Source of the DNA: an uncultured Anaerolineaceae bacterium
GTDB lineage: Bacteria; Chloroflexota; Anaerolineae; Aggregatilineales; Phototrophicaceae
Assembly (NCBI GenBank): GCA_964434365.1
Contig: CAYSVE010000001.1
Coordinates: 4,013 to 62,629, forward strand
DNA: 58,617 bases
Reading direction: 5' to 3'
Of this stretch, positions 29,721 through 57,946 are shown one piece after another. The translations under genes were made by a program, and so were the position numbers. The notes under the pieces were generated by a model. It saw only the letters and a list, made by a program, of their open reading frames with translations, was not told where the DNA came from and ran no database searches. Position 1 is the first letter of the stretch, and every line of letters begins with the position of its first letter.

Positions 29721-29876
29721 GCACCCTCCGTTTTGGGGCATTGGGATCGGACTGCGCCAAGTGGGAGCACACACAAGCGCTCCCCTATCTGTATCGACGC
29801 ACCCTCCGTCCTGGGGCATTGGGATCGGACTGCGCCAAGTGGGAGCACACACAAGCGCTCCCCTATCTGTATCGAC
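29721..29876. repeat. 78-bp tandem repeat x2, each unit with an internal hairpin
   Basis: Units 29721-29798 and 29799-29876 differ at 2 positions (gttttgg against gtcctgg). Each contains gggagc-N10-gctccc. They lie between convergent genes. Confidence 0.9.
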
Positions 29877-35967: not shown

Positions 35968-36730
35968 GCGTCTTCTCGACCCGTTCGACGATCGACCAGA
36001 AGTCGCGCGTGACGGTGTGGCGCGGGTCGTACACGTACATGGTCACGCGCTGCAAAGCTGCCTCCTGTACCGTCACCGATTTACGCACGACTGGCCAAAG
36101 CAACTCGCCGTACTGCTCACCGAGGTAGGTCAAAATCGCGGCGTGTGAGTTGGTGTGCGCCTCGACCATATTCGGCACAATGCCGAGGATACGCGCCTTC
36201 GCAAGGTTGACTTGCGCGGCAGCTTCACGCACGTTTTCGGCGTGGCCGATGGTCGATGGAACGCCTTCGAGTGCGCTGGCGGCTTCGGTTTCGGTGGGCA
36301 GCAAAATGTAGTCGGTACCGGCGGTGATGGCCGCGTGTAGCAGCGAGGGCGTTGGCGCAGTATCGACGATGACGAAGTCGAAAATGCTCTCGATTTCGCG
36401 CACGCGCTTGAAGAAGCGGAGGTTGTCTCCGATGCTGGTAGCGATATTGCGCGATTCGACGTTGGATGGCACCAGGTAAAACTGCTGGTTTGCACCATAC
36501 ACTTCGCCAGGAACCTTGATGGTGGCGGTGCGCCAATCGCCGTTGCGCACCAGCAAATCATAGATTCGGGGTTCTTTGGCAAGCCCGAGGCTGCTGGTGG
36601 CGTTAGCCTGCGGGTCGGAGTCGATGAGCAACACCCGATAGCCTTTGATCGCCAGCCCTGATGCGATGTGCACGGCAAGGGTTGTTTTGCCGACACCGCC
36701 TTTTTCGTTGAGTAGTGTTATGACCTTCAT
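35960..36730 (-). CDS. parA: ParA/Soj family partition ATPase
   Basis: Deviant Walker A LNEKGGVGKTT, a DSDPQ motif, and a length of 256 aa. Confidence 0.9.
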   Translation of the reverse strand: MKVITLLNEKGGVGKTTLAVHIASGLAIKGYRVLLIDSDPQANATSSLGLAKEPRIYDLLVRNGDWRTATIKVPGEVYGANQQFYLVPSNVESRNIATSIGDNLRFFKRVREIESIFDFVIVDTAPTPSLLHAAITAGTDYILLPTETEAASALEGVPSTIGHAENVREAAAQVNLAKARILGIVPNMVEAHTNSHAAILTYLGEQYGELLWPVVRKSVTVQEAALQRVTMYVYDPRHTVTRDFWSIVERVEKTHE

Positions 36731-37164: not shown

Positions 37165-37260
37165 TAAATAAATATGCCCTTGATGTTTACGGTCTTCATG
37201 GTGCACAAATCAACGCCATCTGCTAGAATACGACCCTGTTCACTGCCACTCGAGGGGGTT

Positions 37261-38919
37261 ATGTCCACGAACACATTTGTGCTGCAAGGTGACCACCTTT
37301 CGTGGCTCGATGCACCGTATCCTCGACAAACCCCAACGCAAACGCACACTGGCCACACCATCACGGCGTGGGTAATTGGCGAACTGCTGACCTATAGAGG
37401 GCAGTCGGAGAACTCACTGGCGCGCCTGGTTGCCGACTTCGAAGCAGACCGTGTGGACCTGCCATCTTTGAACGGGCGTTTCGTGTTGGTCATCAAAACC
37501 GAAGCCGAATGGCAGATCATCACCGATCGCGTGGGGTCGGCCCATGTTTACTACGCGCTGGATGACGACAAAATTTGTGCGGTGGGCAACGATCTCGCAG
37601 CAGTTGCTGCTTTATCCCCCCACGCTGACCTCGACTGGCTGGGGATTGCGTCCTTCTTCACATTTGGGTTTTTCCTGGACGATCGTACCTACTACGATCA
37701 CGTTCGTGTGATGTGGCCCGCCTCGGTTTATCGACTTTCGGCGGCGGGGGTGTTGCTGGGCCATGTACGCTACTGGACGTGGCACCACACCCCGGACACA
37801 ACACGCACGTATGACGAAACACTCGAAATCTACGATTCGCTTTTTCGGCAGGCGGTAGCGCGGTGTGCTACCAGCGAGCGCTTGCTCTTGCCGCTCTCGG
37901 GTGGTCTCGATTCGCGTTCGTTGGCAGCGGTGCTGCCGGGTACCGCACAGACTTTCTCCTACGGATACACCCAGCCATCCGTCGAAACGCGCATCGCATC
38001 GCAGGTGGCGCGGGCGGCTAATCTGCCGTACACCGAATTCGTGATGCCAGCCTACTTGTTCGATCATCTGCCGGAAATTGTACGGGCCTTACACGGCGCG
38101 CAGGATGTCACGCAGGCGCGCCAAACCAGCGTGTTCGAGTGGATGCAAGCGCAGGGCGAGGTGGTGCTGACGGGACTGTGGGGCGATGTGTGGTGCGACC
38201 AGATGGGCCTCGCCGATGGCCTGCCCGCTGGCTACGACTTCGAGGCGTACGCCTTCAAAAAGTTGGCGAAGCGCGGGCACGACTGGCTGCTAGACAATGT
38301 CGTCGCGCAGCATCTGCCCAACGCCTGCGATGTACTGAAGCAGCACCTCGCCGATGGCATCGCGGAGTTCGCATCCATCGTCGATGACGACTTTCGCCTG
38401 AAGGCCTACAAGACCTCACGCTGGGCGTTCCGCTGGTCCAACGCCAGTTTGCGCGGCCATGCGATGGGCGCTGTGCCCCGAATCCCATACTACGATGTCG
38501 ACCTGATCGACTTTTTTTTGACGGTGCCCACCGCCTATGTGCGCGACCGACGCCTGCAAATCGATCATCTGAAGCGCTACGCACCGGCCCTGGCACAGGT
38601 CGCGTGGCAGCAGACCCGCAGTAGCTTGTTCACGGAGCAGTTTATCGACGCGCGCCGGTTTGCAGCAATCGCCCTCAACAAGCTCCAGCGGATGTTGCTT
38701 TCGGTGCCAAGTTACCAGCGCAACTGGGAGGTGCAGTTCTTTGCACTGGGCGGGCGCGAGCGGCTCACCGAGAGCCTGGGCGATCTGTCGGCGTTTGGGG
38801 TTCGGCAGGGGGCGGTCGAGGGGCTGCTGGCAGACCTATACACCAACCCGAACGCGCACAACGGCTACAGCGCGTCGCTTTTGTTGACGTTCGCCGCGTG
38901 GATGGAAACCAGAGCATAG
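37261..38919 (+). CDS. Asparagine synthetase B-family protein lacking the N-terminal Cys nucleophile
   Basis: The start was moved to ATG 37261 (RBS gaggggg). It has the PP-loop SGGLDSRS, begins MSTNTF rather than MCG, and is 552 aa long. Confidence 0.85.
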   Translation: MSTNTFVLQGDHLSWLDAPYPRQTPTQTHTGHTITAWVIGELLTYRGQSENSLARLVADFEADRVDLPSLNGRFVLVIKTEAEWQIITDRVGSAHVYYALDDDKICAVGNDLAAVAALSPHADLDWLGIASFFTFGFFLDDRTYYDHVRVMWPASVYRLSAAGVLLGHVRYWTWHHTPDTTRTYDETLEIYDSLFRQAVARCATSERLLLPLSGGLDSRSLAAVLPGTAQTFSYGYTQPSVETRIASQVARAANLPYTEFVMPAYLFDHLPEIVRALHGAQDVTQARQTSVFEWMQAQGEVVLTGLWGDVWCDQMGLADGLPAGYDFEAYAFKKLAKRGHDWLLDNVVAQHLPNACDVLKQHLADGIAEFASIVDDDFRLKAYKTSRWAFRWSNASLRGHAMGAVPRIPYYDVDLIDFFLTVPTAYVRDRRLQIDHLKRYAPALAQVAWQQTRSSLFTEQFIDARRFAAIALNKLQRMLLSVPSYQRNWEVQFFALGGRERLTESLGDLSAFGVRQGAVEGLLADLYTNPNAHNGYSASLLLTFAAWMETRA

Positions 38920-38921
38920 AC

Positions 38922-40136
38922 ATGCCCATACGTCTTTATATTTTGGGGTCGGTGTGGCCCGCAGAAACCTTTGTGATGCGCAAGCTGCTCGGCCTCGCCG
39001 ATGCGGGCGTGCTCGTGACGATTTTCACGCGCGATGTCGGTGACGGTGACAGCAGGCATCGCAACATTGGGCTGCTGCAAATGCCCGTTGTGCAGCCAAA
39101 ATACCCCGCGCGGTCAATCATCAACATGACCGGTGAAACGCTCGGCAAACCGGGCGCGATCCGTGCCACCTGGCCCGATTTCGCTGAGATTGCCGATGCC
39201 CGTGTGCGCATGGCGCAGGTGCTTAAATTTTTGACGTTGCGTGCACAACCACCGGGCATTATCCATTTCGAGTGGAACGGACCCGCAATCCATTACATGC
39301 CCATGGTTCGGCAGCTCGGTTGGCCCAGCGTGGTGAGTTGCCGAGGGTCTCATGTGAATGTTGCCCCCCATGATATTAGCCATATGAAGGCCAACCCCAC
39401 CTACACCGCAGACCTCGCCGCGAGTTTTCGGTTGTCGGCGGCGGTACACTGCGTGAGCGAGGACATCGCGCAGGAGGCGCAGCAATACGACCTCGACCCG
39501 GCCAAAATCCGCGTGATACGCCCGGCGGTGGACCCGGATATGTTCACACCGGCGCAGGTACGCAAACCGAATGATCGCTTCGAGATTATGATCGTCGGGA
39601 GCTTGATGTGGCGAAAGGGGCATGAGTATGCCCTGACTGCGCTGCGAAAGTTGGTCGATGCCGGTATCGACGCTCACTTGACGATTATCGGTAGTGGGCG
39701 CACGCGTGACCGGGTGCTGTACGCGATCCACGATTTGGGTTTGCAAAACCATGCGACACTCATCGGTCGGGTGCCGCCTGCCGAGGTGGTCGCGCGGTTG
39801 CAACAGGCCGATTTGTGCCTGTTGACGAGCCACAGCGAGGGCATTTCCAACGCAGCCCTTGAGGGTATGAGTTGTGGCCTGCCGATCGTTACGACGGACT
39901 GTGGCGGCATGCGTGAGGTCGTACGCGATGGCGTGGAGGGGTTCCTCGTGCCGCTTTACGACACAGACGCGCTCGCCGACCGGATGCGGCGCATCGCCGA
40001 GGATGACACGATGCGCCAGCGGATGGGCGAGGCCGCGCGGCAGCGCATTCTGGAGCAGCACACACTGAAGGGTCAAATCGATGCGTTCCTTGATCTGTAC
40101 CGGTCCTTGATGCCAGCGGAGGAAGCAACCGCGTGA
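38922..40136 (+). CDS. GT4 family glycosyltransferase
   Basis: The start was moved to ATG 38922, 2 nt after the previous stop. It has the GT4 C-terminal motif SHSEGISNAALEGMSCGLPIVTTDCGGMREVV. Confidence 0.85.
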   Translation: MPIRLYILGSVWPAETFVMRKLLGLADAGVLVTIFTRDVGDGDSRHRNIGLLQMPVVQPKYPARSIINMTGETLGKPGAIRATWPDFAEIADARVRMAQVLKFLTLRAQPPGIIHFEWNGPAIHYMPMVRQLGWPSVVSCRGSHVNVAPHDISHMKANPTYTADLAASFRLSAAVHCVSEDIAQEAQQYDLDPAKIRVIRPAVDPDMFTPAQVRKPNDRFEIMIVGSLMWRKGHEYALTALRKLVDAGIDAHLTIIGSGRTRDRVLYAIHDLGLQNHATLIGRVPPAEVVARLQQADLCLLTSHSEGISNAALEGMSCGLPIVTTDCGGMREVVRDGVEGFLVPLYDTDALADRMRRIAEDDTMRQRMGEAARQRILEQHTLKGQIDAFLDLYRSLMPAEEATA

Positions 40137-40185
40137 CATACCACGCACGGAGGGTTTGCATAATGGGTGGGCGGTGTATCGGCTG

Positions 40186-41412
40186 ATGCGCATCGTATTG
40201 GTGGTACCCCAATTTCCGAAGTTGTCGGAAACCTTCATCGTGAGTAAGTTCCTGGGCCTGTTGGCAAGCGGTAAGGACATGCACGTCGTGTGCCGGACGA
40301 GCAAACCAGCTGCCTGGGATATCTTCGCGCGGCTGCAAAACCGGCCAGACCTCCGCAAGCGCGTGCACATCACCTGGCCGGTGAACCCCCGTGTGATCGT
40401 CGGCCCACTGTTGGTGCTGGCACTGCTGCGCTGTTTGCTGCTCCGACCGCGCACAACGGTCACGTATCTGCTGCAAGGCTGGCGTCGCTTTGGGTTAACT
40501 GTGGCCCGACACTTCTACCTGGATCATTACTTTATATTGCTGAAGCCTGACGTGGTGCACGTCGAATTTGGGGCGTTGGCCGTAGATTACACGCACCTGC
40601 CCGAGTTGCTGGACTGCCAGCTTGTCGTGAGCTTCCGTGGGTACGACCTGAACTATGTTGCGCTCGATGAACCGGACTTCTACACGACGGTGTGGCGGAA
40701 CGCGTCGATTATTCATCTGCTGGGCGATGACCTGTGGCAGCGCGCGCTGCGCCGTGGCTGCCCGCCAGGTATGCCCCACGCGCTAATTTCCCCGGCCATC
40801 GATGTCGAGGCCTTCGACGCGGGGCAGCGAGACGCAACCGAGGTCGTGGGGTCGGCAACGCGGCCCCTACGCCTGTTGAGCGTTGGCCGCCTGGAGTGGA
40901 AAAAAGGCTACGAATTCGCCTTGTTGGCGGTGCGGTATCTCGTCGAAGATGGGCTGTGTGTGGAGTACCACATCATCGGCGATGGCGATTTTATGGTGGC
41001 CGTCTCGTTTGCACGGCACGCCCTCGGCCTCGAAGATGTCGTTCACTTCGACGGCTCGCAGCCGCCGGAGCAGGTGCAGGCGATGCTTCGCTGGGCGGAT
41101 GTGTTTTTGCACGCCGCTGTTTCCGAGGGGTTCTGCAATGCGGTGATGGAAGCGCAGTCGATGCAAGTGCCCGTCGTGACATCGGATGCCGATGGGTTGG
41201 CCGAAAATGTACGCGATGGCGTAACGGGGTATGTGGTGCCACGCCGAGACCCACGCGCACTCGCCGAGAAGGTGGCCGAGCTGGCCGCCGACCCAGACCG
41301 ACGCCTGCAAATGGGCCTCGCTGGCCGCGCACATGTGAAAGAGAACTTCACCCTGGATAAGCACATCAACCAATTTCTAGAGATGTATGACCGAATCAAA
41401 CGTGACCGTTGA
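40186..41412 (+). CDS. GT4 family glycosyltransferase
   Basis: MRIVLVVPQFP start; motif SEGFCNAVMEAQSMQVPVVTSDADGLAENV. Confidence 0.85.
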   Translation: MRIVLVVPQFPKLSETFIVSKFLGLLASGKDMHVVCRTSKPAAWDIFARLQNRPDLRKRVHITWPVNPRVIVGPLLVLALLRCLLLRPRTTVTYLLQGWRRFGLTVARHFYLDHYFILLKPDVVHVEFGALAVDYTHLPELLDCQLVVSFRGYDLNYVALDEPDFYTTVWRNASIIHLLGDDLWQRALRRGCPPGMPHALISPAIDVEAFDAGQRDATEVVGSATRPLRLLSVGRLEWKKGYEFALLAVRYLVEDGLCVEYHIIGDGDFMVAVSFARHALGLEDVVHFDGSQPPEQVQAMLRWADVFLHAAVSEGFCNAVMEAQSMQVPVVTSDADGLAENVRDGVTGYVVPRRDPRALAEKVAELAADPDRRLQMGLAGRAHVKENFTLDKHINQFLEMYDRIKRDR

Positions 41413-43054
41413 TCTCATCTGGCAGGGGCAGCGCGACGAAGCCCCTGCGTGGCCACTGGGTGCGGTTCATACCATCGAGCCGACCGTAGCCGACCTTCAC
41501 CGCGTGACGGCGGATTTCGCCCCGACGACCACTGCCGATGCGTGGTTGTTTTGGCACAGTGACCTGGGTCCGCCAGATGCAGAAATCATCGCGAAGACCC
41601 TACAAGGGCCGGGGCAGTGCTTCCATGCCGGGTTGGTGTTGGGCACCGCCGGGCTGCCCGGCACGCTCGATTTTGTTGCGCCGACGTGGATGCTCAACAG
41701 CGACCCCGCGCCGAACATCGAGGCGACATCGTGGCGCTTATCGTTGGCGGCGTGCCTGGCCAAAACGGATGTGATACAGACGTTGGGCACGGTAAACCCG
41801 GCATTCTCCTCTGTGGTAGGGGCGGGGTTGGATATGGGCCTGCGCTACGTGCAACGCGGTGTGCTCATCCGACACGTCCCGGCATTGCTGCCCGCAGCGG
41901 CGCACCTCAGCGAGCAAGCGACGCTACCGCTGGCCGACGACCTGCGGTTTATCCAGCAGAACTACGCCAAACATCAACTGCTGTGGACGCTTGGGCGTGT
42001 TGTGTTGAGCGGGTATGCCCCGCCGTGGGCGGTCATCGCAGGTTGGCGGGCCATCGGTGGATTTGGCAGCCGCATGTCGCAGGCAACCTACGCCGCCGCG
42101 ACGATTGCGCCGGATGATGTGTACGATGCGTCGGCGCGTGTCGCCGTGCTCATTCCCACCATCGACCGATACCCGTACTTGCGCACCTTGTTGGCGCAAC
42201 TGCGCGAGCAGCAACACCCTCCGCACCAAATCGTGGTTATCGACCAGACGCCGCCCGAGGTGCGCGACATGGCGATCGACACGGAATTCGACGACCTGCC
42301 GTTGATCTACCTTCGGCAGGATGAACCGGGGCAGTGCTCATCGCGGAATGCCGGTTTGGCGCGCATCAGCAGCGATTATATTCTGTTCCTCGACGACGAC
42401 GACGAGGTGCAACCGGACCTCATCGTGCGGCACTTGCAGAACTTGCACCGGCACGGGGCCGTTGTGTCCAACGGTGGGCAAGATGAACCCGAAGGGGGTC
42501 CCCCGCCGCCGAACTTCCGCCACACGCAGGTGAGTAGTATCTTCCCGACGAACAATACGCTGATGCAGCGCGATATTCTGGCGCAAACGGGGTTGTTCGA
42601 CCTGGCGTACAACAAGGGGCAACAGGCCGATGGCGACCTGGGGATGCGGGTGTATCACAGCGGGCAGTTGATGGTCTTCGAGCCGACGGTGCGGGTATTT
42701 CATCATCACGCGCCACGCGGTGGGCTACGTATACATGGTGCACGCGTCGTCACCCGGGCGATGAGCCGCGCGAGCTTGTTTCGGCGTCGGCTGCCGCACG
42801 TCACCGAGCTTTACCTTGCCAAGCGATACTTTAGCCCCCGCCAATTGCGCGAGTACTGCTGGTTGGTGGTGCGCGGCACGATGGTTTCGCATCAGGGGGT
42901 GGGGCACCGGGTGTTGCGGCTGGGCGCGGGCCTGCTGATGCTGCCGAACACGCTGCTCGAACTGCGCCGCCGCACACAAACCGCCGAGGCGATGTTGCAG
43001 GACTACCCGCAGATACCGCAGTTGCAGCCGTCATCGCAGGACACCACGCTATGA
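41387..43054 (+). CDS. GT2 family glycosyltransferase with extra N-terminal domain
   Basis: The GT2 core begins around residue 245 (VAVLIPTIDRYPYL, VVIDQTP, ILFLDDDDEV). I cannot assign the first ~240 aa. Confidence 0.8.
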   Translation: MTESNVTVDLIWQGQRDEAPAWPLGAVHTIEPTVADLHRVTADFAPTTTADAWLFWHSDLGPPDAEIIAKTLQGPGQCFHAGLVLGTAGLPGTLDFVAPTWMLNSDPAPNIEATSWRLSLAACLAKTDVIQTLGTVNPAFSSVVGAGLDMGLRYVQRGVLIRHVPALLPAAAHLSEQATLPLADDLRFIQQNYAKHQLLWTLGRVVLSGYAPPWAVIAGWRAIGGFGSRMSQATYAAATIAPDDVYDASARVAVLIPTIDRYPYLRTLLAQLREQQHPPHQIVVIDQTPPEVRDMAIDTEFDDLPLIYLRQDEPGQCSSRNAGLARISSDYILFLDDDDEVQPDLIVRHLQNLHRHGAVVSNGGQDEPEGGPPPPNFRHTQVSSIFPTNNTLMQRDILAQTGLFDLAYNKGQQADGDLGMRVYHSGQLMVFEPTVRVFHHHAPRGGLRIHGARVVTRAMSRASLFRRRLPHVTELYLAKRYFSPRQLREYCWLVVRGTMVSHQGVGHRVLRLGAGLLMLPNTLLELRRRTQTAEAMLQDYPQIPQLQPSSQDTTL

Positions 43055-44103
43055 CGAATCCATCCTCGACGGTACTCATCGTGGGCAATTTCATGTCTCG
43101 GTATAAGGGCACGCGTGGTGTCTGCGAAGACCTTGCAGACCGCCTCATGGGGCGCGGCTGGACGACCATCGATACGTCGAGCCGGAAAAACGCTCTCGCC
43201 AAGCTGGCCGATATGCTATGGACGACCTATCGGCATAAGGGGCGCTACGACGTCGCGCATGTAGAAGTCTACAGCGGGCGGGCGTTCATCTGGGCGGAGG
43301 CGACCTGCTGGTTGTTGCGCCGGCTGGGGAAGCCGTATGTGCTCACGCTGCACGGTGGCAACCTGCCATCCTTCGCGTCGCGGAATCCGGCCCGGATGCG
43401 TCGGTTGCTAGCGACGGCGGCTTACATCACCACGCCATCGCGCTATTTGTACGATACGATGCAGCCCTACGCCGAGAACCTGCGTGTGCTGCCGAATGCC
43501 CTCGATCTGTCGGCGTATACGTTTGTGCAGCGCACCGCCGCCACGCCGAAGCTGGTATGGCTACGCGCATTTGCCGAGGTGTACAATGTCACGCTGGCTG
43601 CGGAGGTTGTGGCGCGGCTGAAGGATGACTACCCGACACTTCAACTGTATATGATAGGGCCAGACAAACAAGATGGCAGCCTGGAGGCGTTCCAGGCGCG
43701 CGTGGAAGCCCTCGACATCGGTGAGCACATCACGATTGTTGGGCGGGTGCCGAAGGAAGCGGTGCCGACGTGGATGAACAAAGGGGATGTTTTCCTTAAC
43801 ACTACCAACTTCGACAACACGCCCGTAAGCGTGATGGAAGCAATGGCCGCCGGGTTGTGTGTGGTAAGCACCGATGCGGGTGGGTTGCCGTATCTGCTCG
43901 ACGACGGTGAGGACGCTTTGCTGGTACCGGTAGGCGATGCTGACGCGATGGCCGGTGCGGTGCGTCGTATTTTGGAAGACCCGGCTCTCGCGGAAACGTT
44001 ATCGAGGAAGGCCCGTGCCCGCGCCGAGCGCTTCGATTGGGCGTCGGTGCTGCCACAGTGGGAAGCGATACTGGTGGATATGTTGAAGGAGAACGTGTCA
44101 TGA
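43051..44103 (+). CDS. GT4 family glycosyltransferase
   Basis: 4-nt overlap with the previous gene; motif NTPVSVMEAMAAGLCVVSTDAGGLPYLL. Confidence 0.85.
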   Translation: MTNPSSTVLIVGNFMSRYKGTRGVCEDLADRLMGRGWTTIDTSSRKNALAKLADMLWTTYRHKGRYDVAHVEVYSGRAFIWAEATCWLLRRLGKPYVLTLHGGNLPSFASRNPARMRRLLATAAYITTPSRYLYDTMQPYAENLRVLPNALDLSAYTFVQRTAATPKLVWLRAFAEVYNVTLAAEVVARLKDDYPTLQLYMIGPDKQDGSLEAFQARVEALDIGEHITIVGRVPKEAVPTWMNKGDVFLNTTNFDNTPVSVMEAMAAGLCVVSTDAGGLPYLLDDGEDALLVPVGDADAMAGAVRRILEDPALAETLSRKARARAERFDWASVLPQWEAILVDMLKENVS

Positions 44104-45461: not shown

Positions 45462-45516
45462 GGGCGGCTAGCGTGTGGGTGGCTAATCATTTATTGCAGT
45501 TGAAGCGGAGAGTACC

Positions 45517-46374
45517 TTGACGGAAACCCAGCCCGGTTTGCAATACCGTTTGAAGATTCGTGCCCGCCTGATGTATGGCATGATGACGAGTTCGCTGCGT
45601 ATACTACCGAATTTCCTGGTTATCGGGGTGGAAAAAGGCGGGACGACATCGCTATTCCGTTATCTCGTTAAACACCCGAACGTCTTACCCGCAGCCAAGA
45701 AGGAAATCCACTATTTCTCACACGTCTACAATGTGGGGTATCACACCTGGGGTTGGTATCGGGGGCACTTCCCACTGAAGATTACCCGAGCGATGCACCC
45801 CCACCAACCGGCCACCGTCGGTGAGGCCTCAGCGAACTACATCTCGCACCCGCACGCGCCGCAGCGCGTCGCCGCCATGCTGCCAGGGGTCAAGATCATC
45901 GCGCTGCTTCGCAACCCCATCGACCGGGCGTATTCGCAGTATCAACACAAGGTGCGCCAGGGGTTGGAGGATCTGAGCTTCGAAGAGGCGATTCGCAAGG
46001 AGCCGGGGCGGATGGCAGGTGAGTGGGACCGCATGATGAACGACCCCAGCTATTACAGCGCTGCGTATCACTATCATGCTTATGTGCAGCGTGGGCAATA
46101 TGCCGAGCAGCTCGAACGGTGGTTCGCACAGTTGCCCCGCGAGCAGTTTTTGGTCCTCCGTAGCGAGGATTTGTTCGAGCGGCCCCGTGAAATTTATGCC
46201 GATGTGCTGGACTTCCTCGGGTTGCCTGCCTGGGACCCGGTGGACTTTAAGCCCTACCTCAAGGCCACCTATACCGAGATGCCCGCAGACTTACGCGACG
46301 AACTGGGTGCGCACTTCCAACCCCACAATCAGCGGCTGTATACCCTGCTGAACGGTAATATGGGTTGGGACTAA
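45517..46374 (+). CDS. Sulfotransferase
   Basis: 5'-PSB loop IGVEKGGTTSLF and 3'-PB LLRNPIDRAYSQY. The start is uncertain (TTG 45517 or a downstream ATG). Confidence 0.85.
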   Translation: MTETQPGLQYRLKIRARLMYGMMTSSLRILPNFLVIGVEKGGTTSLFRYLVKHPNVLPAAKKEIHYFSHVYNVGYHTWGWYRGHFPLKITRAMHPHQPATVGEASANYISHPHAPQRVAAMLPGVKIIALLRNPIDRAYSQYQHKVRQGLEDLSFEEAIRKEPGRMAGEWDRMMNDPSYYSAAYHYHAYVQRGQYAEQLERWFAQLPREQFLVLRSEDLFERPREIYADVLDFLGLPAWDPVDFKPYLKATYTEMPADLRDELGAHFQPHNQRLYTLLNGNMGWD

Positions 46375-46417
46375 CACCGAATCGTGATCTACCGAAAACT
46401 GAGAGTAACCAACAACC

Positions 46418-47173
46418 ATGAACGCTGCCGACAAGCTATTGCGTAAATACCTGTTCCGTCGTGATTTGATGATCGCCGTGAGGCGACGTGCCCGGAAGTT
46501 CCGGCGGCGCATCAGCCGCGATATTTACGATGACCAGCGGTTGCTATTCGAACGAGCAGGCATCAGCCCGCAGGTCATTGTCGATATTGGGGCGTTTCAG
46601 GGTAAAATCACCGACCAGTATCTGCGGGCCTTCCCACAGGTGACTGTGCACGCGTTGGAGCCTTTCCCGTCATCACATCGTAAATTGCAGGAGCGCTTCC
46701 AGGATGAGCCTCGTGTACACGTCCACTGTCTGGCGATTTCCGACGAGAGCGGCACCGCGCAGTTCTACATAAACAATTTGCCGAATACCAATTCCTTGCT
46801 TGCGCAGGAAGGGGGGCGAAGCAAAGACGTGATCGATGTCCCCACACTCACATTCGATGCGTTCGCGTCGGAAAATGGCATCGAGCACATCGACCTGGTA
46901 AAGGTGGATACCGAAGGTGCCGAACTCAAAGTATTCAAAGGGGCGACTACGCTCCTTGCCGAGCAACGCATCGACATGGTCTCTACCGAAGTTCGCTTTG
47001 CCGATAAATTTGTGGGACAAAGCGCTTTTGTCGATGTGGTAAACCTGTTCAACGAGTACGGGTACACGCTCCATAATGTGTACATCAACCGCGAAGACGA
47101 ATATGCACAGGCTTACTTCGGTGATGCGACATTTTGGAGCCCGGCCTTTCGCAAGCGGCTTAAGGGTGGGTAG
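46418..47173 (+). CDS. FkbM family methyltransferase
   Basis: VVDIGAFQGKIT and VKVDTEGAELKVFKGA. Confidence 0.85.
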   Translation: MNAADKLLRKYLFRRDLMIAVRRRARKFRRRISRDIYDDQRLLFERAGISPQVIVDIGAFQGKITDQYLRAFPQVTVHALEPFPSSHRKLQERFQDEPRVHVHCLAISDESGTAQFYINNLPNTNSLLAQEGGRSKDVIDVPTLTFDAFASENGIEHIDLVKVDTEGAELKVFKGATTLLAEQRIDMVSTEVRFADKFVGQSAFVDVVNLFNEYGYTLHNVYINREDEYAQAYFGDATFWSPAFRKRLKGG

Positions 47174-47275
47174 GGGCGGCGGCTAGCCATCGTCCAGGTT
47201 GCACTGCGCATTGTGGACCCAATTTCTGTTCAGTACACTTTAGGCGCGCGAAAGACGGTAATTGCGAGGCAGACA

Positions 47276-47959
47276 ATGAGCACAACACAAACACAGGCGA
47301 AGAACCATCAGCCAGTCGTGAAACGCAGCCCGCAAGTCAAGCGGGTGTACTGGCGGATGAGGAACCAGCTTCATCGATTTCTGGAGCACCACCAATACAA
47401 CTTTGTCTACATTCACATCAACAAAACGGGTGGCCGTAGCATAGAAACCGCGCTGGGCTTGCTCTCGGTCGACCATCGAACGGCCTTGCAGAAGCGAAAC
47501 GACATGGGGGCCGCTGCCTGGGAGCAAAAGTTCAAGTTCGCCTTCGTCCGTAACCCGTGGGATCGCGTGGTATCGCACTATGCGTACCGCATCAAAACCA
47601 ATCGGTTGGGCCTTGCAGAAGCGAATCTTGACTTTAAAGCGTGGCTGAAGCTGGCCTACCAGGACCAAGACCGCGCGTTTTTCGACCAGCCCAAGTTTTT
47701 TATGCCGCAGTTCGAGTGGCTATCGGATGAAAATGGGCAACTCATCGTGGACTACGTGGGCCGGTTCGAGACACTCAACCAAGACTTCGCCCATGTGTGC
47801 GAACAAATCGGTCGTGACGTCGAGCTACCACATGTGAATAAATCGAACCGAAGCCACTACAGTAGCTACTACGATGACGAGTCCATTGCGCTCGTCGGCG
47901 AATTATTCGCCAAGGACATCGAGCACTTTGGCTACACCTTCGAAACGCCCAACGCATAG
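47276..47959 (+). CDS. Sulfotransferase family 2-like protein
   Basis: The start was moved to ATG 47276. It has YIHINKTGGRSIE (P-loop-like) and FAFVRNPWDRVVSHY, as in carbohydrate sulfotransferase-2 type enzymes. Confidence 0.7.
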   Translation: MSTTQTQAKNHQPVVKRSPQVKRVYWRMRNQLHRFLEHHQYNFVYIHINKTGGRSIETALGLLSVDHRTALQKRNDMGAAAWEQKFKFAFVRNPWDRVVSHYAYRIKTNRLGLAEANLDFKAWLKLAYQDQDRAFFDQPKFFMPQFEWLSDENGQLIVDYVGRFETLNQDFAHVCEQIGRDVELPHVNKSNRSHYSSYYDDESIALVGELFAKDIEHFGYTFETPNA

Positions 47960-48038
47960 GGTGCACTGCCGCCCCAGCGAGCCGACTCATACGCAGCGCT
48001 TTACCCACACCTGATCTCGAAACGGATGAACAAGCCAC

Positions 48039-49178
48039 ATGGCGTCTTCGAAACCCGCCAAAATTCTGTTTACCATTCCTAACTTCATCACGGCGGGTTC
48101 TGGCCTGTTGTTGTTTAGCGTGGTGCGGTTGCTCGACCGCGATCGCTACGACCCCACGATTGCGGTTCTGGAGAAGGGGGGGCGCCTGGAAGCAGAGATC
48201 GAGGCGGAAAATATTCCGATCATCGAATTGCCCTTCACGTTGAATCCGCGCCCATTGTGGAATTTACCCACGCGGGCCTGGCAGGTAGCCCAGCCCTTTC
48301 GCCCCTATCAGTTCGATCTCTGGCATTCCTTCCACTACTCCGCAGACTACACCGAGCCGATCATCGCGCGCCTGGCCGGGGCAAAAGCCTGGATTTACAC
48401 CAAGAAGAATATGAACTGGGTGAACCGGGCGAACCGGGCGTGGCTGGTGCGGTCGTTTTTGGCGTCGCGCATCGTTGCCGATAACTCGACTATGATGGAA
48501 ACGTTCTTCGACAACTGGTGGGCGCGCGGCAAAACGGTGCTCATCGAGCACAGTGTGGACGTGGAAAAATACAACCCGCACACCGAACCCAGCCTCGACG
48601 TGCGCCAACAGCTTCACCTCTCGCCAGATGATTTCCTGATTGGCGCGGTGGCCCATGTGCTCCCTGTGAAGGGGTACCGCACCTTGATTCGGTCGATAGC
48701 GCATTTGCCGTCGTCGGCGCATCTGGTCATCGCCGGTAGCCTGGATAATGAGGCGTACGTCGCCGAGTTGCACGCGCTCATCGATGAACTACAGTTGGCC
48801 GAGCGTGTTCACTTTTTGGGCCGCATCGGTGGGGTGCCTCAACTACACGCCGAACTCGATGCTTACGTGCTCGCGACGAATGGCCACGGGCGCATGGAAG
48901 GTTGCCCGGTCGCGTTGTTGGAGGCGCTGTCCTGCGGGACGCCGTCGGTGGCGACCGATATTCCAGGCTCGAAGGATATTATCGTCGACGGCGAAAGTGG
49001 GTTGCTGGTGCCGCCCGAAGACCCCGAGGCGATGGCGCAGGCCCTCATGCGCCTATACAACGATGAGCAGCTCCGCCGCCAGATGGGGCCAAAGGGCCGC
49101 GAGCGTATTCTGGCGCACTATCGTGTGGAGCGAGAGGCAAACGAACTTCAGGCCTTGTACGCCGATATCCTTCGGTAG
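48039..49178 (+). CDS. GT4 family glycosyltransferase
   Basis: Motif RMEGCPVALLEALSCGTPSVATDIPGSKDII; length 379 aa. Confidence 0.85.
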   Translation: MASSKPAKILFTIPNFITAGSGLLLFSVVRLLDRDRYDPTIAVLEKGGRLEAEIEAENIPIIELPFTLNPRPLWNLPTRAWQVAQPFRPYQFDLWHSFHYSADYTEPIIARLAGAKAWIYTKKNMNWVNRANRAWLVRSFLASRIVADNSTMMETFFDNWWARGKTVLIEHSVDVEKYNPHTEPSLDVRQQLHLSPDDFLIGAVAHVLPVKGYRTLIRSIAHLPSSAHLVIAGSLDNEAYVAELHALIDELQLAERVHFLGRIGGVPQLHAELDAYVLATNGHGRMEGCPVALLEALSCGTPSVATDIPGSKDIIVDGESGLLVPPEDPEAMAQALMRLYNDEQLRRQMGPKGRERILAHYRVEREANELQALYADILR

Positions 49179-49188
49179 GGCAGTCGCC

Positions 49189-50175
49189 TTAGGTGGGGTT
49201 GCCGTCACCGTTGAGGTAGGGCGTCAGGGTTGGACCGAATGCGTCCACGATGCGCTCGATTTTGTCGATTTGTTCGGTGGCGAGGGACTCGCGCCACTTC
49301 TCGATCCGTCCCTTGCGATCGAAGTTATTCCGGTTCTGGAAGACGGTACCGCTGGGGCGCTTGAGGATAGCCCCTTTTTCATCCACCGTTACCGCGTATC
49401 CCTCGCCCAGGTAGGCCAGCAAGTCGTCGAAGGTGGTGATGGGGTCCAGCACGAGGCTATCGAAGGATAGCACGTGTGCGGGCAGCACGTTCTGCTCGAT
49501 TTGCCGGAGCGGAACGTAGTAGTTGATGCACCAGCCAACGACCATCCGCGAGAAGGGGTCTTCATCGCAGCGATGGATGAGGTCGGTGTAATCGGCCAGC
49601 CAATCGACGACAAGCGCGTCCTGGCCCATAAACAGCTTTAAGTAGCCCGGCTCCTGCATGTAGCGTGTCCAGCCCTGCCGCAACATCGATTCGATCGTTG
49701 CGCCCGGATTCCGCACGATCAACACGACTTTGCAGCCGAAGGTATGGGCCAGCCAGGCCAGCATCAGGTTGCCGTGGATCATTTTGACGATGGTGTTGGT
49801 CCACCAGATGGCACGGCTATCGTGTCGGGTACGGCGAACGTGGGTGTTGCCGACAATTTTCCCCTTGAGGGCCATGTGGAAAAAAGCTTCGAGGTCCGTG
49901 TCGGTTTGGTCTGTACGGCGATAGGGGTACGCGTAATGCAGGTCGCCGGTAAAGGTGTGGGGGTGTAAAAATGGCCGCGCCGCGCTCACACGATGATGCA
50001 GCGGTTCGAACACGGTGCGGCGATGGGTGACACCCGCCAGCGATTGCGCCAGGTAGGTTGTTCCGCTACGGCCAATGCCAGAGATGACGATGGCATCGGA
50101 GGCCTGCGCGATGCTGCCCTGCAACGCCTCGGCAGCGTTGATAATGAGGGGCTTGAATGAGTTCCTAAGTTGCAT
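49189..50175 (-). CDS. Sulfotransferase family protein
   Basis: N-terminal ISGIGRSGTTYLAQSL and LIVRNPGATIESML. It overlaps the upstream gene by 11 nt. Confidence 0.65.
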   Translation of the reverse strand: MQLRNSFKPLIINAAEALQGSIAQASDAIVISGIGRSGTTYLAQSLAGVTHRRTVFEPLHHRVSAARPFLHPHTFTGDLHYAYPYRRTDQTDTDLEAFFHMALKGKIVGNTHVRRTRHDSRAIWWTNTIVKMIHGNLMLAWLAHTFGCKVVLIVRNPGATIESMLRQGWTRYMQEPGYLKLFMGQDALVVDWLADYTDLIHRCDEDPFSRMVVGWCINYYVPLRQIEQNVLPAHVLSFDSLVLDPITTFDDLLAYLGEGYAVTVDEKGAILKRPSGTVFQNRNNFDRKGRIEKWRESLATEQIDKIERIVDAFGPTLTPYLNGDGNPT

Positions 50176-51337
50176 CGGCTTCGTCGTTTGTGTAATAGCG
50201 CGCGAAGAACGGGTCCTCTTCGCTTTCGGCCAGCAGGTTTTCCAGGCGTTCCACCGAGGAGTACGGCCCGAGAATATCGGGCGTTTCGCGCAGCATCATC
50301 AGGTAAATTTCGGTCGTGAGGTATGGGGTAATGTGCCACGCATCCAGGAAGTGTTCGTCGCCAAGGGGTAGGGTAGCCGGGTCGGTAAAGTCGAAGAGTG
50401 GGAAGCCGTACTGCTCGAAGATGGCCGCCGTGAAGTCTGGTACATCTGCGAGGTACGTATGGTCGCCCGAGGTCGTCAGCCACTCGTAACTGAGGTTGGA
50501 GAAGGGCGGTAAGCACCCGACGACCTGCATCTCCAGCTCGACTGCGCGGTCGAGGATCGCTTCCACCACGGCGGCATTTTCCTCGGCAATGCGGTCTCCA
50601 TTGACCCACTGCTGCGCCCGCGCCTCGAACCGCCTGCGATGAAATTGGCTACGCTCCTCGATCGTCACGGTCTCCAGTCGTCTACGTGCCCGTACCGACT
50701 GAAAGATTTCGCCGTTGTTCAGCACAGCAGTGTCGCCGATCATCGCACGTAGCCCTACTGCCTTGAAGCCGAACTGCGGTTCGGTGCCCGATAGGATGTT
50801 GCTCCCGCGCGTGTCGACAAAACGCATCATCTCCATGCTCATATCCACCGAGCGTTGCAGCATCGTCTGGAAGTCGATATCGCCTATGTACGGTGGTTCG
50901 GTATTGACGAAGCTATTCGGCGAGAAGAAGCTCTGATCGAGGCACCACAGCATCACATCGGGGGCATCGCTCGCGTCCAGGTTATCCAGGTAATACTGCA
51001 CTTCCTCGTGGTCGAAGGAGGCGATCCAGGCGTTGTACATTTCGTAGGGTTCATCGATTAAATACGGGCCGTAGGAATAGATACGCGACGACCCCATAAA
51101 CAGCACATCGGGCTGCACGTGCTGGATGGACCGCAACCGAAAGGCGAACGCCTCATCACGGTTTGCTTCGAAGGCCCCGTACACCACGGGTTCGTCGGTA
51201 TCCAGCATCTGTATTGCCACAGAAATCGGAAGCGCATCGCCAATGTAAACTCCCAGGCCCACGATGAGCGCCAGCACTGCAACCAGCGGCGTGACAAACA
51301 AAAGCAGAGTTTTTAGGAATTGCTTGGGTGTGTTCAA
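50165..51337 (-). CDS. Membrane-anchored hypothetical protein, possible DltD/AlgX-like partner of the MBOAT
   Basis: It has an N-terminal TM segment, sits directly downstream of the MBOAT gene, and has FMGSSR and D..WH patterns suggestive of an SGNH-type fold. This is a weak assignment. Confidence 0.6.
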   Translation of the reverse strand: MNTPKQFLKTLLLFVTPLVAVLALIVGLGVYIGDALPISVAIQMLDTDEPVVYGAFEANRDEAFAFRLRSIQHVQPDVLFMGSSRIYSYGPYLIDEPYEMYNAWIASFDHEEVQYYLDNLDASDAPDVMLWCLDQSFFSPNSFVNTEPPYIGDIDFQTMLQRSVDMSMEMMRFVDTRGSNILSGTEPQFGFKAVGLRAMIGDTAVLNNGEIFQSVRARRRLETVTIEERSQFHRRRFEARAQQWVNGDRIAEENAAVVEAILDRAVELEMQVVGCLPPFSNLSYEWLTTSGDHTYLADVPDFTAAIFEQYGFPLFDFTDPATLPLGDEHFLDAWHITPYLTTEIYLMMLRETPDILGPYSSVERLENLLAESEEDPFFARYYTNDEADAT

Positions 51338-51360
51338 GGGTTCACGCTATCTTCCGACTA

Positions 51361-52815
51361 TTAGAACTGGAAGTAGATAAAGTCGGCCTCAGTTGTGCTG
51401 ACCGAGTAGATAATCAACAGAGATGCGACATAATACGCGGCCCAGCGCAGTTGCCGTGTTTTCGTCTCCAGGCTCCAGAAGGGGCGCGGCTGTTGGGCAG
51501 CCCAGTCTGCAACAAACAAAACGGTGATCGTCGCGATGGCCATGCCTAGCTCCAACCAGGCTGCACCGTAGGGTGCAATACCCCCAAACGGTTCGGCGAT
51601 TTGGAAGCCCGAGGAGAAGTTGAAGAGGTGGGTGACGATGTAGAAGCTATCCTGAATGTTGTTCGCGCGGAAGAAAATCCACCCAATGCAAACCAGCACG
51701 AACGTAAACACCGTCGCGAGCCACGGCGGCGCCGTGCGGGTGTCTGCCTGGCCCCCACGCACGTAGCGGTCCCAAACAATTTCGCCGACGATTAAAAACC
51801 CGTGGATCGTGCCCCACAGCACAAACGTCCACGCCGCACCGTGCCACAAGCCGCTGATCACGAACACGATCATCAAGTTGCGCAGCGTTGCCGAGAACGA
51901 CACCCGGCTGCCGCCCAGCGGGATGTAAACGTAGTCGCGGAACCATGTAGACAGCGAAATGTGCCACCGACGCCAGAATTCGCGGATGGACCGCGAAAAA
52001 TAGGGCTGGCGGAAGTTTTGCATCAGGTCGAAGCCCATCGTCCGCGCGGTGCCGATGGCGATATCGGAGTAGCCGGAAAAGTCGCAGTAGATTTGGATGG
52101 CAAAAAAGAACGTCGCCAGCATCAGGTGTACGCCGGTATAGTCCTCGACGTTGTTGTAAACCGTGTTGACGTAAGCAGCGAGGCGGTCTGCAATGACGAC
52201 TTTTTTGAACGCCCCCCACAAAATGAGCCGCAAGCCAGAGACCATCCGCTCATCGTTGAAGGTGTGTTGTTGCTTGAACTGGCCGAGCATGTTCGAAGCG
52301 CGTTCGATGGGGCCTGCAACCAACTGTGGGAAGAACGCAATGTACGTCGCGAAACGGCCCAGGTGACGCTCCGCAGCCACATTCCCACGATACACATCGA
52401 TGGTGTAGGCCATCGATTGGAAGGTGTAAAAGGAAATCCCCACCGGCAACAACAGGTTGTGGGTTTGGGCGGCGGTATCCGGGCCTAAGCTGACGAGGAC
52501 GCTATTTGCCGATTGGCTAAAGAAGTTGAAGTACTTGAAGACGAACAATGTGCCCAGGTTCACGCATATGCTCAGCAGCAAAAACGATCGTCGGGTCGTT
52601 TGTTGTTCTTCGGGGGTGCTTTCGATGCGTATGGCTGCGATGTAGTCCACGATCGTCGAAAAAACGATCAACAGGATGTAGTACACATTCCAGTAGGCGT
52701 AGAAGAAGTAACTCGCGACGAGCAGCAGAATCCAACGGAACCGGAACGGCAATAAGAAATACGATGAAAGCACAATGATGAAAAACACCACGAATTCATC
52801 GCTAATGAATGACAT
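51361..52815 (-). CDS. MBOAT family O-acyltransferase (AlgI/DltB-like)
   Basis: 484 aa and polytopic, with the signature FWRRWHISLSTWFRDYVYIPLGG containing the catalytic His. Confidence 0.9.
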   Translation of the reverse strand: MSFISDEFVVFFIIVLSSYFLLPFRFRWILLLVASYFFYAYWNVYYILLIVFSTIVDYIAAIRIESTPEEQQTTRRSFLLLSICVNLGTLFVFKYFNFFSQSANSVLVSLGPDTAAQTHNLLLPVGISFYTFQSMAYTIDVYRGNVAAERHLGRFATYIAFFPQLVAGPIERASNMLGQFKQQHTFNDERMVSGLRLILWGAFKKVVIADRLAAYVNTVYNNVEDYTGVHLMLATFFFAIQIYCDFSGYSDIAIGTARTMGFDLMQNFRQPYFSRSIREFWRRWHISLSTWFRDYVYIPLGGSRVSFSATLRNLMIVFVISGLWHGAAWTFVLWGTIHGFLIVGEIVWDRYVRGGQADTRTAPPWLATVFTFVLVCIGWIFFRANNIQDSFYIVTHLFNFSSGFQIAEPFGGIAPYGAAWLELGMAIATITVLFVADWAAQQPRPFWSLETKTRQLRWAAYYVASLLIIYSVSTTEADFIYFQF

Positions 52816-57944: not shown

Positions 57945-57946
57945 GG

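Follow-up and report, generated by a model that had tools for sequence, protein, structure and literature searches.

A sulfotransferase-dense locus predicted to make a sulfated, methylated and acylated glycan, with a neighbouring lasso-peptide operon, in a probable Chloroflexota bacterium

Sulfated polysaccharides are of industrial and biological importance, and in bacteria they have been described as essentially confined to cyanobacteria (PMC8205485, PMC13390465). The only genetically proven bacterial cluster for a sulfated exopolysaccharide (EPS) that we found in the literature is the synechan xss cluster, sll5042-sll5060 on plasmid pSYSM of Synechocystis sp. PCC 6803; its OPX gene is chromosomal, and sulfation has been proposed to take place on a cytoplasmic intermediate (PMC8205485). 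Sulfated-glycan clusters have also been predicted in Actinoplanes missouriensis (wps-1, PMC13390465) and in Pontiella sulfatireligans, where the cluster is glycosaminoglycan (GAG)-like (PMC7356697). A study of a mat metagenome reported no sulfotransferase in its metagenome-assembled genomes (MAGs) of Chloroflexi, which were counted only as degraders (PMC9723792). Here we describe a stretch of 58,617 nucleotides from a contig of 62.6 kb (CAYSVE010000001.1, positions 4,013 to 62,629; the window throughout this text is this whole stretch), and above all its segment 37.2-52.8 kb, in which three sulfotransferase genes sit among four GT4 genes and one GT2 gene.

In our reading this segment, the main locus, encodes enzymes that assemble and tailor a complex acidic glycan in the cytoplasm, a second region (7.2-21.4 kb) supplies precursors, and a separate operon is devoted to a lasso peptide. 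We give this reading a probability of roughly 0.6. It is plausible that the glycan is sulfated, methylated and acylated and that three or four of the sulfotransferases are associated with it, and the window belongs to a kind of locus that is predicted but rarely proven. An earlier, sequence-only reading of the same DNA had proposed a sulfated, methylated, O-acylated polysaccharide. Its view of 37261-52815 as a locus in which a glycan is synthesised and modified was borne out: three sulfotransferases are embedded there, along with a methyltransferase and a putative acylation pair of the MBOAT type. The word polysaccharide, on the other hand, is not established, a sulfated protein- or lipid-linked oligosaccharide being an equally good fit. 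The features on which we rely are collected in Table 1, and ORFs (open reading frames) are referred to below by their first coordinate.

Table 1. Predicted features of the window, in order of position, with the matches on which each assignment rests.
Feature	Coordinates	Strand	Evidence
Divergent sulfotransferase	5330-6235	+	Sulfotransfer_3 24.2 bits (needs 27), Sulfotransfer_1 19.5 bits (needs 22); below threshold
CapD/PglF/WbpM-type membrane-anchored UDP-GlcNAc 4,6-dehydratase	7208-9130	-	Polysacc_synt_2 353.6 bits; PseB, FnlA partial
TviC-like NAD-dependent epimerase (UDP-GlcNAcA 4-epimerase-like)	13483-14439	+	Epimerase 206.9 bits
Sulfotransferase	15744-16613	+	Sulfotransfer_3 59.6 bits, Sulfotransfer_1 45.9 bits; passes
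GT47 (exostosin)-like glycosyltransferase	16633-17685	-	Exostosin_GT47 46.3 bits (cut-off 33.4), C-terminal part of domain only
715-aa GT-C fold membrane glycosyltransferase with C-terminal CBM-like beta-sandwich	17764-19911	-	AlphaFold2 and Foldseek
Nucleotide-sugar 6-dehydrogenase (UDP-ManNAc/UDP-GlcNAc dehydrogenase-like)	20010-21365	+	TIGR03026 453 bits, above cut-off
AsnB-like synthetase-domain protein	37174-38919 (probable start 37261)	+	Asn_synthase 46.6 bits, sole Pfam match
GT4 glycosyltransferase	38898-40136 (probable start 38922)	+	Glycos_transf_1 141.8 bits
GT4 glycosyltransferase	40156-41412	+	Glycos_transf_1 114.8 bits; 54% homologue in Thermoleophilia locus L005
GT2 glycosyltransferase	41387-43054	+	Glycos_transf_2 68.4 bits, residues 254-376; 41% homologue in L005
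GT4 glycosyltransferase	43051-44103	+	Glyco_trans_1_4 97.8 bits; conserved pair with downstream CapK-like ligase
CapK/PaaK-like adenylate-forming ligase	44037-45461 (probable start 44100)	+	AMP-binding 35 bits
Sulfotransferase	45517-46374	+	Sulfotransfer_1 70.2 bits; passes
FkbM-family methyltransferase	46418-47173	+	Methyltransf_21 80.9 bits; TIGR01444 108 bits, above cut-off
Sulfotransferase	47213-47959 (probable start 47276)	+	Sulfotransfer_2 (PF03567) 61.4 bits; passes
GT4 glycosyltransferase	48039-49178	+	Glycos_transf_1 118.7 bits; last gene of plus-strand run
Sulfotransferase	49189-50175	-	Sulfotransfer_1 34.4 bits, Sulfotransfer_3 33.1 bits; both pass
390-aa putative SGNH-fold (DltD/PatB-like) MBOAT partner	50165-51337	-	N-terminal transmembrane helix
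MBOAT membrane O-acyltransferase (AlgI/DltB-like)	51361-52815	-	MBOAT (PF03062) 113.4 bits
Lasso-peptide operon, genes overlapping one another	53115-57203	-	Order: kinase, sulfotransferase, PqqD/B1, B2, cyclase
Putative Asn-synthetase-like lasso cyclase	53115-54803	-	NF033535 best NCBIfam match, 267 bits, E 2.7e-79 (equivalog cut-off 525)
Lasso B2 protease	54781-55278	-	NF033537 83.4 bits (cut-off 33); Transglut_core3 PF13471 84 bits
PqqD-family lasso chaperone (B1)	55184-55501	-	NF033536 90.6 bits (cut-off 80); PF05402 66.4 bits
Sulfotransferase	55462-56310	-	Sulfotransfer_1 74.7 bits, highest of the six; passes
HprK-like P-loop kinase	56307-57203	-	Weak Hpr_kinase_C and TIGR04352 matches

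The window resembles the synechan cluster in that sulfotransferases of different subfamilies lie among many glycosyltransferases, in that the replicon also carries a ParA gene, and in that the cluster does not by itself make up a complete pathway. It differs from xss in having no Wzx, Wzy, PCP or priming glycosyltransferase and none of the XssQ/R/S regulators, whereas it carries more sulfotransferases and, in addition, FkbM, MBOAT/SGNH, AsnB-like and CapK-like enzymes; its host, moreover, is probably a member of the Chloroflexota and not a cyanobacterium. When all window proteins were compared by tblastn with pSYSM 35-80 kb, sulfotransferase 45517 was 24% identical to XssA over 219 aa, and the other matches consisted of generic GT4 similarities and a weak histidine-kinase match. 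The locus is not related by descent to xss, which the sequence-only reading had named as the best-studied example, and there is no orthology between the two. The likeness of wps-1 and of the Pontiella cluster, compared by description, lies in a heparan-sulfate-type and a Gal/GalNAc-type (Sulfotransfer_2-like) sulfotransferase together with a methyltransferase, set among GT2 and GT4 genes, and in all three cases it is gene content that points to sulfation. Those two clusters differ from the window in having Wzx, Wzy and Wzz, or membrane proteins that are candidates for these roles, and in carrying one or two sulfotransferases where the window has three or four.

The evidence that carries our reading begins with the sulfotransferases themselves. 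Across the whole window 47 ORFs, mostly of at least 150 aa, were scanned with Pfam, and 30 of these also with NCBIfam. Six ORFs had been named as sulfotransferases with motifs for binding 3'-phosphoadenosine 5'-phosphosulfate (PAPS). Five of them lie above the Pfam gathering threshold for families of the Sulfotransfer_1/2/3 type, and only 5330 lies below it. Reading the sequences by eye, we found motifs like the 5'-phosphosulfate-binding (5'-PSB; K-x-G/A-x-T/S) and 3'-phosphate-binding (3'-PB; R-x-P-x5-S) loops in all six. The status of 5330 is settled by its family: an exhaustive HMMER search returned 2390 relatives, 45 of the 48 that were aligned match Sulfotransfer_3 (best E 9e-16), and the family profile has a full-length match to the bacterial sulfotransferase 3rnl (E 1.3e-22) and also matches many cytosolic sulfotransferases. 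Residues K11, R114 and S122, which we read as parts of the PAPS motifs, are invariant or nearly so across the family alignment. Judged by these profile matches, 5330 is clearly a sulfotransferase at the family level, though it remains below the threshold itself. All six ORFs are sulfotransferase-fold proteins, and the earlier count of six holds. Their assignment to a single glycan holds only in part, i.e. 45517, 47276 and 49189 belong to the main locus and 15744 to the second region, whereas 55462 is a member of the lasso operon and 5330 has no glycosyltransferase nearby. The latter gene is flanked by SDR and integrase genes, and FkbM and GNAT genes are also among its neighbours.

The six enzymes are not recent duplicates, because only the pair 15744 and 45517 reaches 32% mutual identity; they fall into five unrelated subfamilies. 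A convincing transmembrane or signal segment was seen in none of them, which means that sulfation must be cytoplasmic, with a nucleotide sugar or a lipid-linked intermediate as acceptor. In the PDB 15744 matches 3rnl (E 4e-34), with 3-OST and NDST at E 1e-13 to 1e-10, and 45517 likewise matches 3rnl (E 2e-28), with NDST1 and 3-OST at E about 1e-19. Both enzymes are nearest to the N- and 3-O-sulfotransferases of heparan sulfate (NDST and 3-OST) and are accordingly predicted to be of the carbohydrate type. The PDB sequence search gave no match for sulfotransferases 47213 and 49189.

The plus strand of the main locus carries a run of ten genes in the order AsnB-like, GT4, GT4, GT2, GT4, CapK-like, sulfotransferase 45517, FkbM, sulfotransferase 47276 and GT4, and the minus-strand genes for the MBOAT protein, a 390-aa membrane-anchored protein and sulfotransferase 49189 converge on it. 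Neighbouring genes of the run are separated by gaps or overlaps of a few nt, such as the 2-nt gap between 38919 and 38922 and the overlaps within ATGA at 43051/43054 and 44100/44103, and the details reported earlier for this packing proved exact. On the opposite strand the gene of sulfotransferase 49189 overlaps that of the MBOAT partner by 11 nt. The G+C content is even across the locus and all ORFs are intact. The list of glycan enzymes drawn up in the sequence-only reading was likewise recovered by family matches, namely four GT4, one GT2, a partial GT47-like transferase, two FkbM methyltransferases, the PaaK/CapK-like and AsnB-like enzymes, MBOAT, the dehydrogenase, the epimerase and CapD.

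Several of these proteins deserve comment. The AsnB-like protein has an SGGLDS motif and begins with MSTNTF; a glutaminase domain was not detectable in it and an N-terminal Cys is absent. We regard it as a candidate amide-forming tailoring enzyme, and a homologue that is 42% identical adjoins a GT4 gene in a locus of the Acidobacteriota (L012). For the GT4 enzyme 38898 the top NCBIfam match is EpsE-like (152 bits, under its cut-off), the GT2 enzyme carries a 250-aa N-terminal extension of no characterised type, and the CapK-like ligase has partial NCBIfam matches to DVU_1553-family and PaaK-like models.

The MBOAT protein has at least 7 transmembrane segments and the His motif RRWHISL, and it matches the DltB model TIGR04091 at 169.9 bits, i.e. 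under the cut-off. Its 390-aa neighbour is harder to place. It has just two detectable homologues, one of which matches DUF1574, and no match in the PDB sequence search. Residue S84 (in GSSR) and the pair D332-x-x-H335 are invariant across the three known sequences. The structural model is of low confidence (pLDDT 57) because only three sequences exist; its top Foldseek matches, which are weak (E>=1.7e-3), are without exception to SGNH esterases, DltD or PatB. The protein is plausibly, not firmly, an SGNH partner of the MBOAT enzyme as far as the model can tell. The arrangement is known from AlgI/AlgJ/AlgX, DltB/DltD and PatA/PatB, where an MBOAT protein with a WHIS motif likewise stands beside a membrane-anchored protein with Ser and D-x-x-H; in comparison to these the present partner is extremely divergent.

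From this gene content we infer the acceptor substrates, the order of the steps and the occurrence of sulfation, as follows. The four GT4 enzymes and the GT2 enzyme would build an oligosaccharide, presumably on a polyprenyl-phosphate carrier. The AsnB-like synthetase domain and the CapK/PaaK-like enzyme may modify carboxyl groups, most likely by forming amides on uronic acids, and the FkbM enzyme may O-methylate the glycan. Up to three soluble, PAPS-dependent sulfotransferases of unrelated subfamilies would sulfate different positions of the cytoplasmic intermediate before export, the cytoplasm being the place where PAPS is available. After export, the MBOAT enzyme and its membrane-anchored, SGNH-like partner could O-acylate the glycan outside the cell. 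The second region would supply N-acetylhexosamine (HexNAc)-uronic acid and 6-deoxy-HexNAc precursors and may add a fourth sulfotransferase, of the heparan-sulfate type, as well as the GT47-like transferase and the extracytoplasmic GT-C transferase.

In the second region the dehydrogenase 20010 has WecC-type and TviB models as its top equivalog matches, and the top NCBIfam match of the epimerase 13483 is TviC (239 bits, under cut-off). A homologue of the GT47-like protein, 37% identical, adjoins a CapK-like gene in another locus (L007). The route to a 2-acetamido uronic acid that had been proposed for dehydrogenase, epimerase and CapD together can be kept for the first two, which are TviB- and TviC-like; CapD does not belong to it, being PseB/FnlA-like and leading to a 6-deoxy-HexNAc. 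Sulfotransferase 15744, of the heparan-sulfate type, stands among the TviB/TviC-like enzymes and the GT47-like transferase, and its placement in a glycan context is upheld.

The 715-aa protein 17764 has no Pfam or NCBIfam match and about 10 transmembrane helices. Its AlphaFold2 model, made from a 40-sequence alignment, is of high confidence (pLDDT 92.9, pTM 0.88). All Foldseek matches that span the membrane domain are GT-C enzymes: STT3, AglB, PglB, Pmt4, EmbA/B/C, ArnT, AftA and DPY19 are found with probability 1.0 and E down to 5e-10, and ALG12 is also among the matches. The C-terminal beta-sandwich matches CBM6/35-like modules, and D39, which lies in the first extracytoplasmic loop, does not vary among 40 homologues. 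According to the model the protein is a GT-C fold enzyme of the extracytoplasmic type that uses lipid-linked sugars, with its activity predicted. It had been put forward as a candidate for one of the components missing from the pathway. The GT-C fold was confirmed, but a polymerase or an exporter could be rejected, as the fold is that of lipid-linked-sugar transferases, and an extracytoplasmic glycosyltransferase does not replace a flippase, polymerase or exporter. The protein has 132 detectable homologues, and all the named ones come from MAGs of Chloroflexi, Anaerolineae or Aggregatilineales. This one protein family is the basis on which the host is placed, most probably, in the class Anaerolineae of the Chloroflexota. 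In one of these assemblies, GCA_022843745.1 (locus L024, 5599-12196), three tandem paralogues of the 715-aa protein lie beside a small GT2 gene and epimerase genes.

The recurrence of similar loci elsewhere was observed directly, as were the domain and fold identities and the gene order given above. A GTDB scan with the CapK-like ligase found homologues of 44-54% identity in glycan loci of several phyla. The pair formed by the GT4 and CapK-like genes is conserved at 41-56% identity in four loci (L003, L005, L008 and L012), and glycan loci that share this core occur in Acidobacteriota, Thermoleophilia and Anaerolineaceae. In the homologous CapK-centred glycan loci of 14 other genomes, about 206 kb in all, tblastn at E<=0.01 detected no sulfotransferase. 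It follows that the sulfotransferase density is not generic to such loci, and since the GT4 and CapK-like core has none elsewhere, the sulfotransferases in the window look like an add-on to a widespread glycan scaffold, as far as the gene comparison goes.

The sulfotransferases lead to a different set of loci. The family of 45517 comprises at least 4391 proteins at E<=1e-10, and the three close homologues whose context was examined all sit in glycan loci. One of these, L017, has three sulfotransferases, GT4 genes, Wzx and a CapK-like gene; another, L018/L019, is a capsule locus of the ABC type that includes NeuB and a KpsS-like gene; and in the third, L020/L021, a stretch of 10 kb contains six sulfotransferases, with GT4 genes and Wzx in between. 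The contig of L020 (2368-18387, ENA ERZ1758434, forest soil) also encodes a bifunctional ATP-sulfurylase/APS-kinase, a sulfate permease-like transporter and a PMT_2 (GT-C) protein, and a CapK-like gene follows in its sister contig L021. By its predicted gene content L020/L021 is a more complete candidate for a sulfated-glycan cluster than the window. The PAPS synthase within the cluster ties this kind of locus directly to the use of PAPS, and it is strong circumstantial evidence, at the level of gene content, that such loci really sulfate their glycan. In a further metagenomic locus (L027, 9558-15795, JGI Ga0209362_1001056) six tandem Sulfotransfer_2 paralogues, 30-41% identical to 47213, occupy about 6 kb. 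Taken as a group, L017, L020/L021 and L027 have homologues of 45517 at 46-48% identity among GT4 and CapK-like ligase genes, with three to six sulfotransferases per locus. They carry Wzx but not the MBOAT pair or FkbM, so that the shared parts are sulfotransferase, GT4 and CapK-like genes. The comparison of loci that had been suggested for this DNA thus gave a divided answer, i.e. similar multi-sulfotransferase loci do occur in metagenomes, but a close relative of the whole locus was not found. The accompanying statement was that sulfated polysaccharides are uncommon in bacteria; loci of this kind are less rare than was assumed, in view of the size of the 45517 family, many members of which lie in multi-sulfotransferase glycan loci, and of the recurrence of such loci in metagenomes.

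Several observations weigh against our reading. The related CapK-centred loci are wholly without sulfotransferases. The GTDB scan with the CapK-like ligase gave no close syntenic relative of the whole locus, and a metagenome scan with sulfotransferase 47276 gave only relatives of at most 35% identity across most of the query, so that a conserved sulfotransferase complement is not in evidence. None of the scanned window ORFs matches families for PAPS synthesis (ATP sulfurylase, APS kinase) in Pfam or NCBIfam, and none matches Wzx, Wzy, PCP, OPX, priming phosphoglycosyltransferase or ABC-transporter families. These absences agree with what the sequence-only reading had reported; with no gene for priming, flipping, polymerisation, export or PAPS supply in the window, completeness of the pathway cannot be shown. 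Sulfotransferase 49189 is closer to the lasso-operon enzyme than to the carbohydrate type, the integrase and ParA/ParB genes could mean that the DNA is a mosaic mobile element, and acceptor specificity is not readable from sequence.

The same absences bear on what the product might be. Without genes for Wzy, PCP and OPX proteins or an ABC exporter in the window, it may be a sulfated, methylated oligosaccharide on a lipid carrier that is passed on either to a lipid anchor or to a protein of the cell surface, sheath or S-layer, rather than a free polysaccharide. The GT-C protein would then act in the transfer or in extracytoplasmic decoration, in analogy to the sulfated N-glycans of the haloarchaeal S-layer; dolichol is the carrier on which Halobacterium assembles glycans that are sulfated and transiently methylated. 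The oligosaccharyltransferases STT3, AglB and PglB indeed rank first among the structural matches of the GT-C protein (E 5e-10 to 1e-7), and two secreted paralogues with Ig-like repeats, encoded in the second region, could be acceptor proteins. However, the TM-scores to the oligosaccharyltransferases are only about 0.44, with ArnT, AftA and Pmt4 about equal when normalised to the target length, the family consensus of the GT-C protein shows no WWDYG-type oligosaccharyltransferase motif, its gene lies 17 kb away from the main locus, and the genome may have export and polymerase genes outside the window. We consider such a product unlikely, if worth keeping in mind. More remote is the idea that most of the sulfotransferases act on RiPPs (ribosomally synthesised and post-translationally modified peptides) or other small molecules, with the glycosyltransferases as incidental neighbours or as decorators of a natural product. 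One sulfotransferase is demonstrably within the lasso operon, and 49189 is weakly related to it (27% identity over 111 aa to 55462), lies on the same strand downstream of that operon and forms a unit with MBOAT. The 37-52.8 kb segment nevertheless has five glycosyltransferases and no polyketide synthase, nonribosomal peptide synthetase or further RiPP gene, 45517 and 15744 are of the carbohydrate type, and homologues of 45517 are found in Wzx- and ABC-type capsule or EPS loci. We therefore hold this idea to be highly improbable.

A different doubt concerns whether the locus works at all. The window contains genes for a ParA ATPase and a weak ParB-HTH protein (35173-36730, minus strand) and for a tyrosine integrase (6245-7225, plus strand), which suggest, as predicted genes, a plasmid or mobile context. 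A megablast search of PLSDB with 35-58.6 kb found no similar plasmid, and the best ParA identity there was 34% (tblastn). These genes, the five unrelated sulfotransferase subfamilies, the homologous CapK-centred loci that lack sulfotransferases and the absence of priming, export and PAPS genes from the window would all fit an incomplete, possibly non-functional plasmid or mobile mosaic that gained its sulfotransferases piecemeal and sulfates nothing for want of PAPS or of acceptor steps. Yet every ORF is intact, the PAPS motifs are kept in all six sulfotransferases and K11, R114 and S122 in the family alignment of 5330, the genes are packed with overlaps as is typical of a working operon, and the G+C content is even along the locus. 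Plasmid-borne sulfated-glycan clusters that need chromosomal genes do work, moreover, as the OPX of synechan illustrates (PMC8205485). A defunct mosaic is in our judgement very unlikely, and we retain the reading of the main locus as one for assembly and tailoring of an acidic glycan.

Sulfotransferase 55462 has to be considered apart from the glycan. Its gene lies between those of the HprK-like kinase and the PqqD-family protein in an operon for a lasso peptide, in which the putative cyclase passes the Pfam thresholds for Asn_synthase and GATase_7 and its gene overlaps that of B2. The nearest solved structures to 55462 are Teg12, Teg14 and StaL, and also cytosolic aryl sulfotransferases. Teg12, Teg14 and StaL sulfate the aglycones of glycopeptide antibiotics. 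The nearest plasmid-borne homologues, in Thalassobaculum and Tistrella (loci L022 and L023), directly follow an HprK-like kinase gene. The Thalassobaculum cluster comprises an Asn-synthase-related gene, B2, PqqD, an ABC transporter and a nucleotidyltransferase, and the Tistrella homologue adjoins a nucleotidyltransferase gene. Since 55462 lies inside the lasso operon it is not to be counted towards the glycan, and the earlier proposal that it is a glycan sulfotransferase has to be withdrawn. The enzyme and the HprK-like kinase probably tailor the lasso peptide, as gene order and homology suggest.

The operon can be compared with the kinase-type lasso clusters of paeninodin and pseudomycoidin, with which it shares B1 (PqqD), B2, an Asn-synthetase-like candidate for the cyclase and a homologue of HPr kinase (PMC8498205). 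It differs from them in that a sulfotransferase is placed between kinase and B1 and in that the host is probably a member of the Chloroflexota; a precursor gene, an ABC exporter and a nucleotidyltransferase gene, in turn, were not seen in the window. A pattern scan of the short ORFs near the operon and of all intergenic regions gave no credible precursor candidate; the pattern (Thr at -2 of the leader, Asp/Glu at core position 7-9) is simple and may miss the gene, or the gene may be located beyond the window. Putative sulfotransferase genes of unknown function have been noted in kinase-type lasso clusters (PMC8498205), and in the literature on lasso peptides we found no sulfated lasso peptide. 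The operon with both kinase and sulfotransferase thus points to a peptide modification that we did not find described in the literature searched.

Directly upstream of the lasso kinase gene, at 57207-58617 on the minus strand, lie genes for a DprE2-like SDR protein (NF053786 159 bits; PRK07102 306 bits, above cut-off) and a DprE1-like oxidase. Two enzymes of this kind would provide a donor of the polyprenyl-phospho-arabinofuranose type, which a GT-C enzyme could use. A frameshift in the DprE1-like ORF was considered and rejected, as the ORF runs off the end of the window.

A bolder version of our reading is that a Chloroflexota bacterium makes a multiply sulfated, GAG-like surface polymer of HexNAc and uronic acid by means of heparan-sulfate-type sulfotransferases and the GT47-like transferase, and that the neighbouring operon makes the first sulfated, possibly phospho-sulfated, lasso peptide. 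We think this quite unlikely as a whole. If the GAG-like part were true, the sulfated GAG-like polymers that have been detected chemically in granular sludge and other biofilms would have a producer in this group, and the Chloroflexota host, if confirmed, bears on the question of who makes such matrix polymers in sludge granules and mats. The features of note are a host that probably belongs to the Chloroflexota, an unusually broad set of tailoring enzymes and the lasso operon with kinase and sulfotransferase; interest is lessened by a pathway that is incomplete, by the want of a relative with conserved synteny and by the fact that comparable loci are evidently abundant in metagenomes. Together with the related metagenomic loci, the window suggests that sulfotransferase-dense glycan loci are widespread in uncultured bacteria of soil and sediment. 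It also offers an enzyme set for the heterologous production of new sulfated glycans, with three or four unrelated sulfotransferases in addition to methyl, acyl and amide tailoring.

Some further features of the window were noted. In the second region, the paralogous secreted proteins mentioned above (12183-13352, minus strand, and 14443-15633, plus strand) each have a signal peptide and three Ig-like repeats with the motifs (F/Y)WKVEI and R(I/L)VA(V/I)A(H/Y)DG; their genes flank the epimerase gene, and no significant family match was obtained for either protein. At 9358-12186 (minus strand) two GldG-like ABC_transp_aux proteins, one of which has an SH3_3 domain at its end, are encoded side by side, with no ABC transporter genes nearby. 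Rfam and tRNA scans of the window found nothing, and a promoter and terminator scan remained at background level. A 986-aa beta-CASP metallo-beta-lactamase nuclease is encoded at 23055-26015 (minus strand), adjoined by a small HNH endonuclease ORF (22254-22607, minus strand). The beta-CASP protein has partial NCBIfam matches, far under the cut-offs, to aCPSF1 and to the type VII CRISPR protein Cas14; as a marker of a type VII CRISPR system it was rejected, there being no repeat array and no PADLOC match. A 78-nt tandem duplication of 97% identity (29721-29876) lies inside a 501-aa ORF, and a 24-nt periodic repeat (31894-32013) inside a 219-aa ORF, both ORFs being without a family match. Finally, a 175-aa ORF at 19-546 (plus strand), also without a family match, contains the motif AYHSD(G/D)QTYGDNPG.MG..(T/S)FTHVMG.FP twice.

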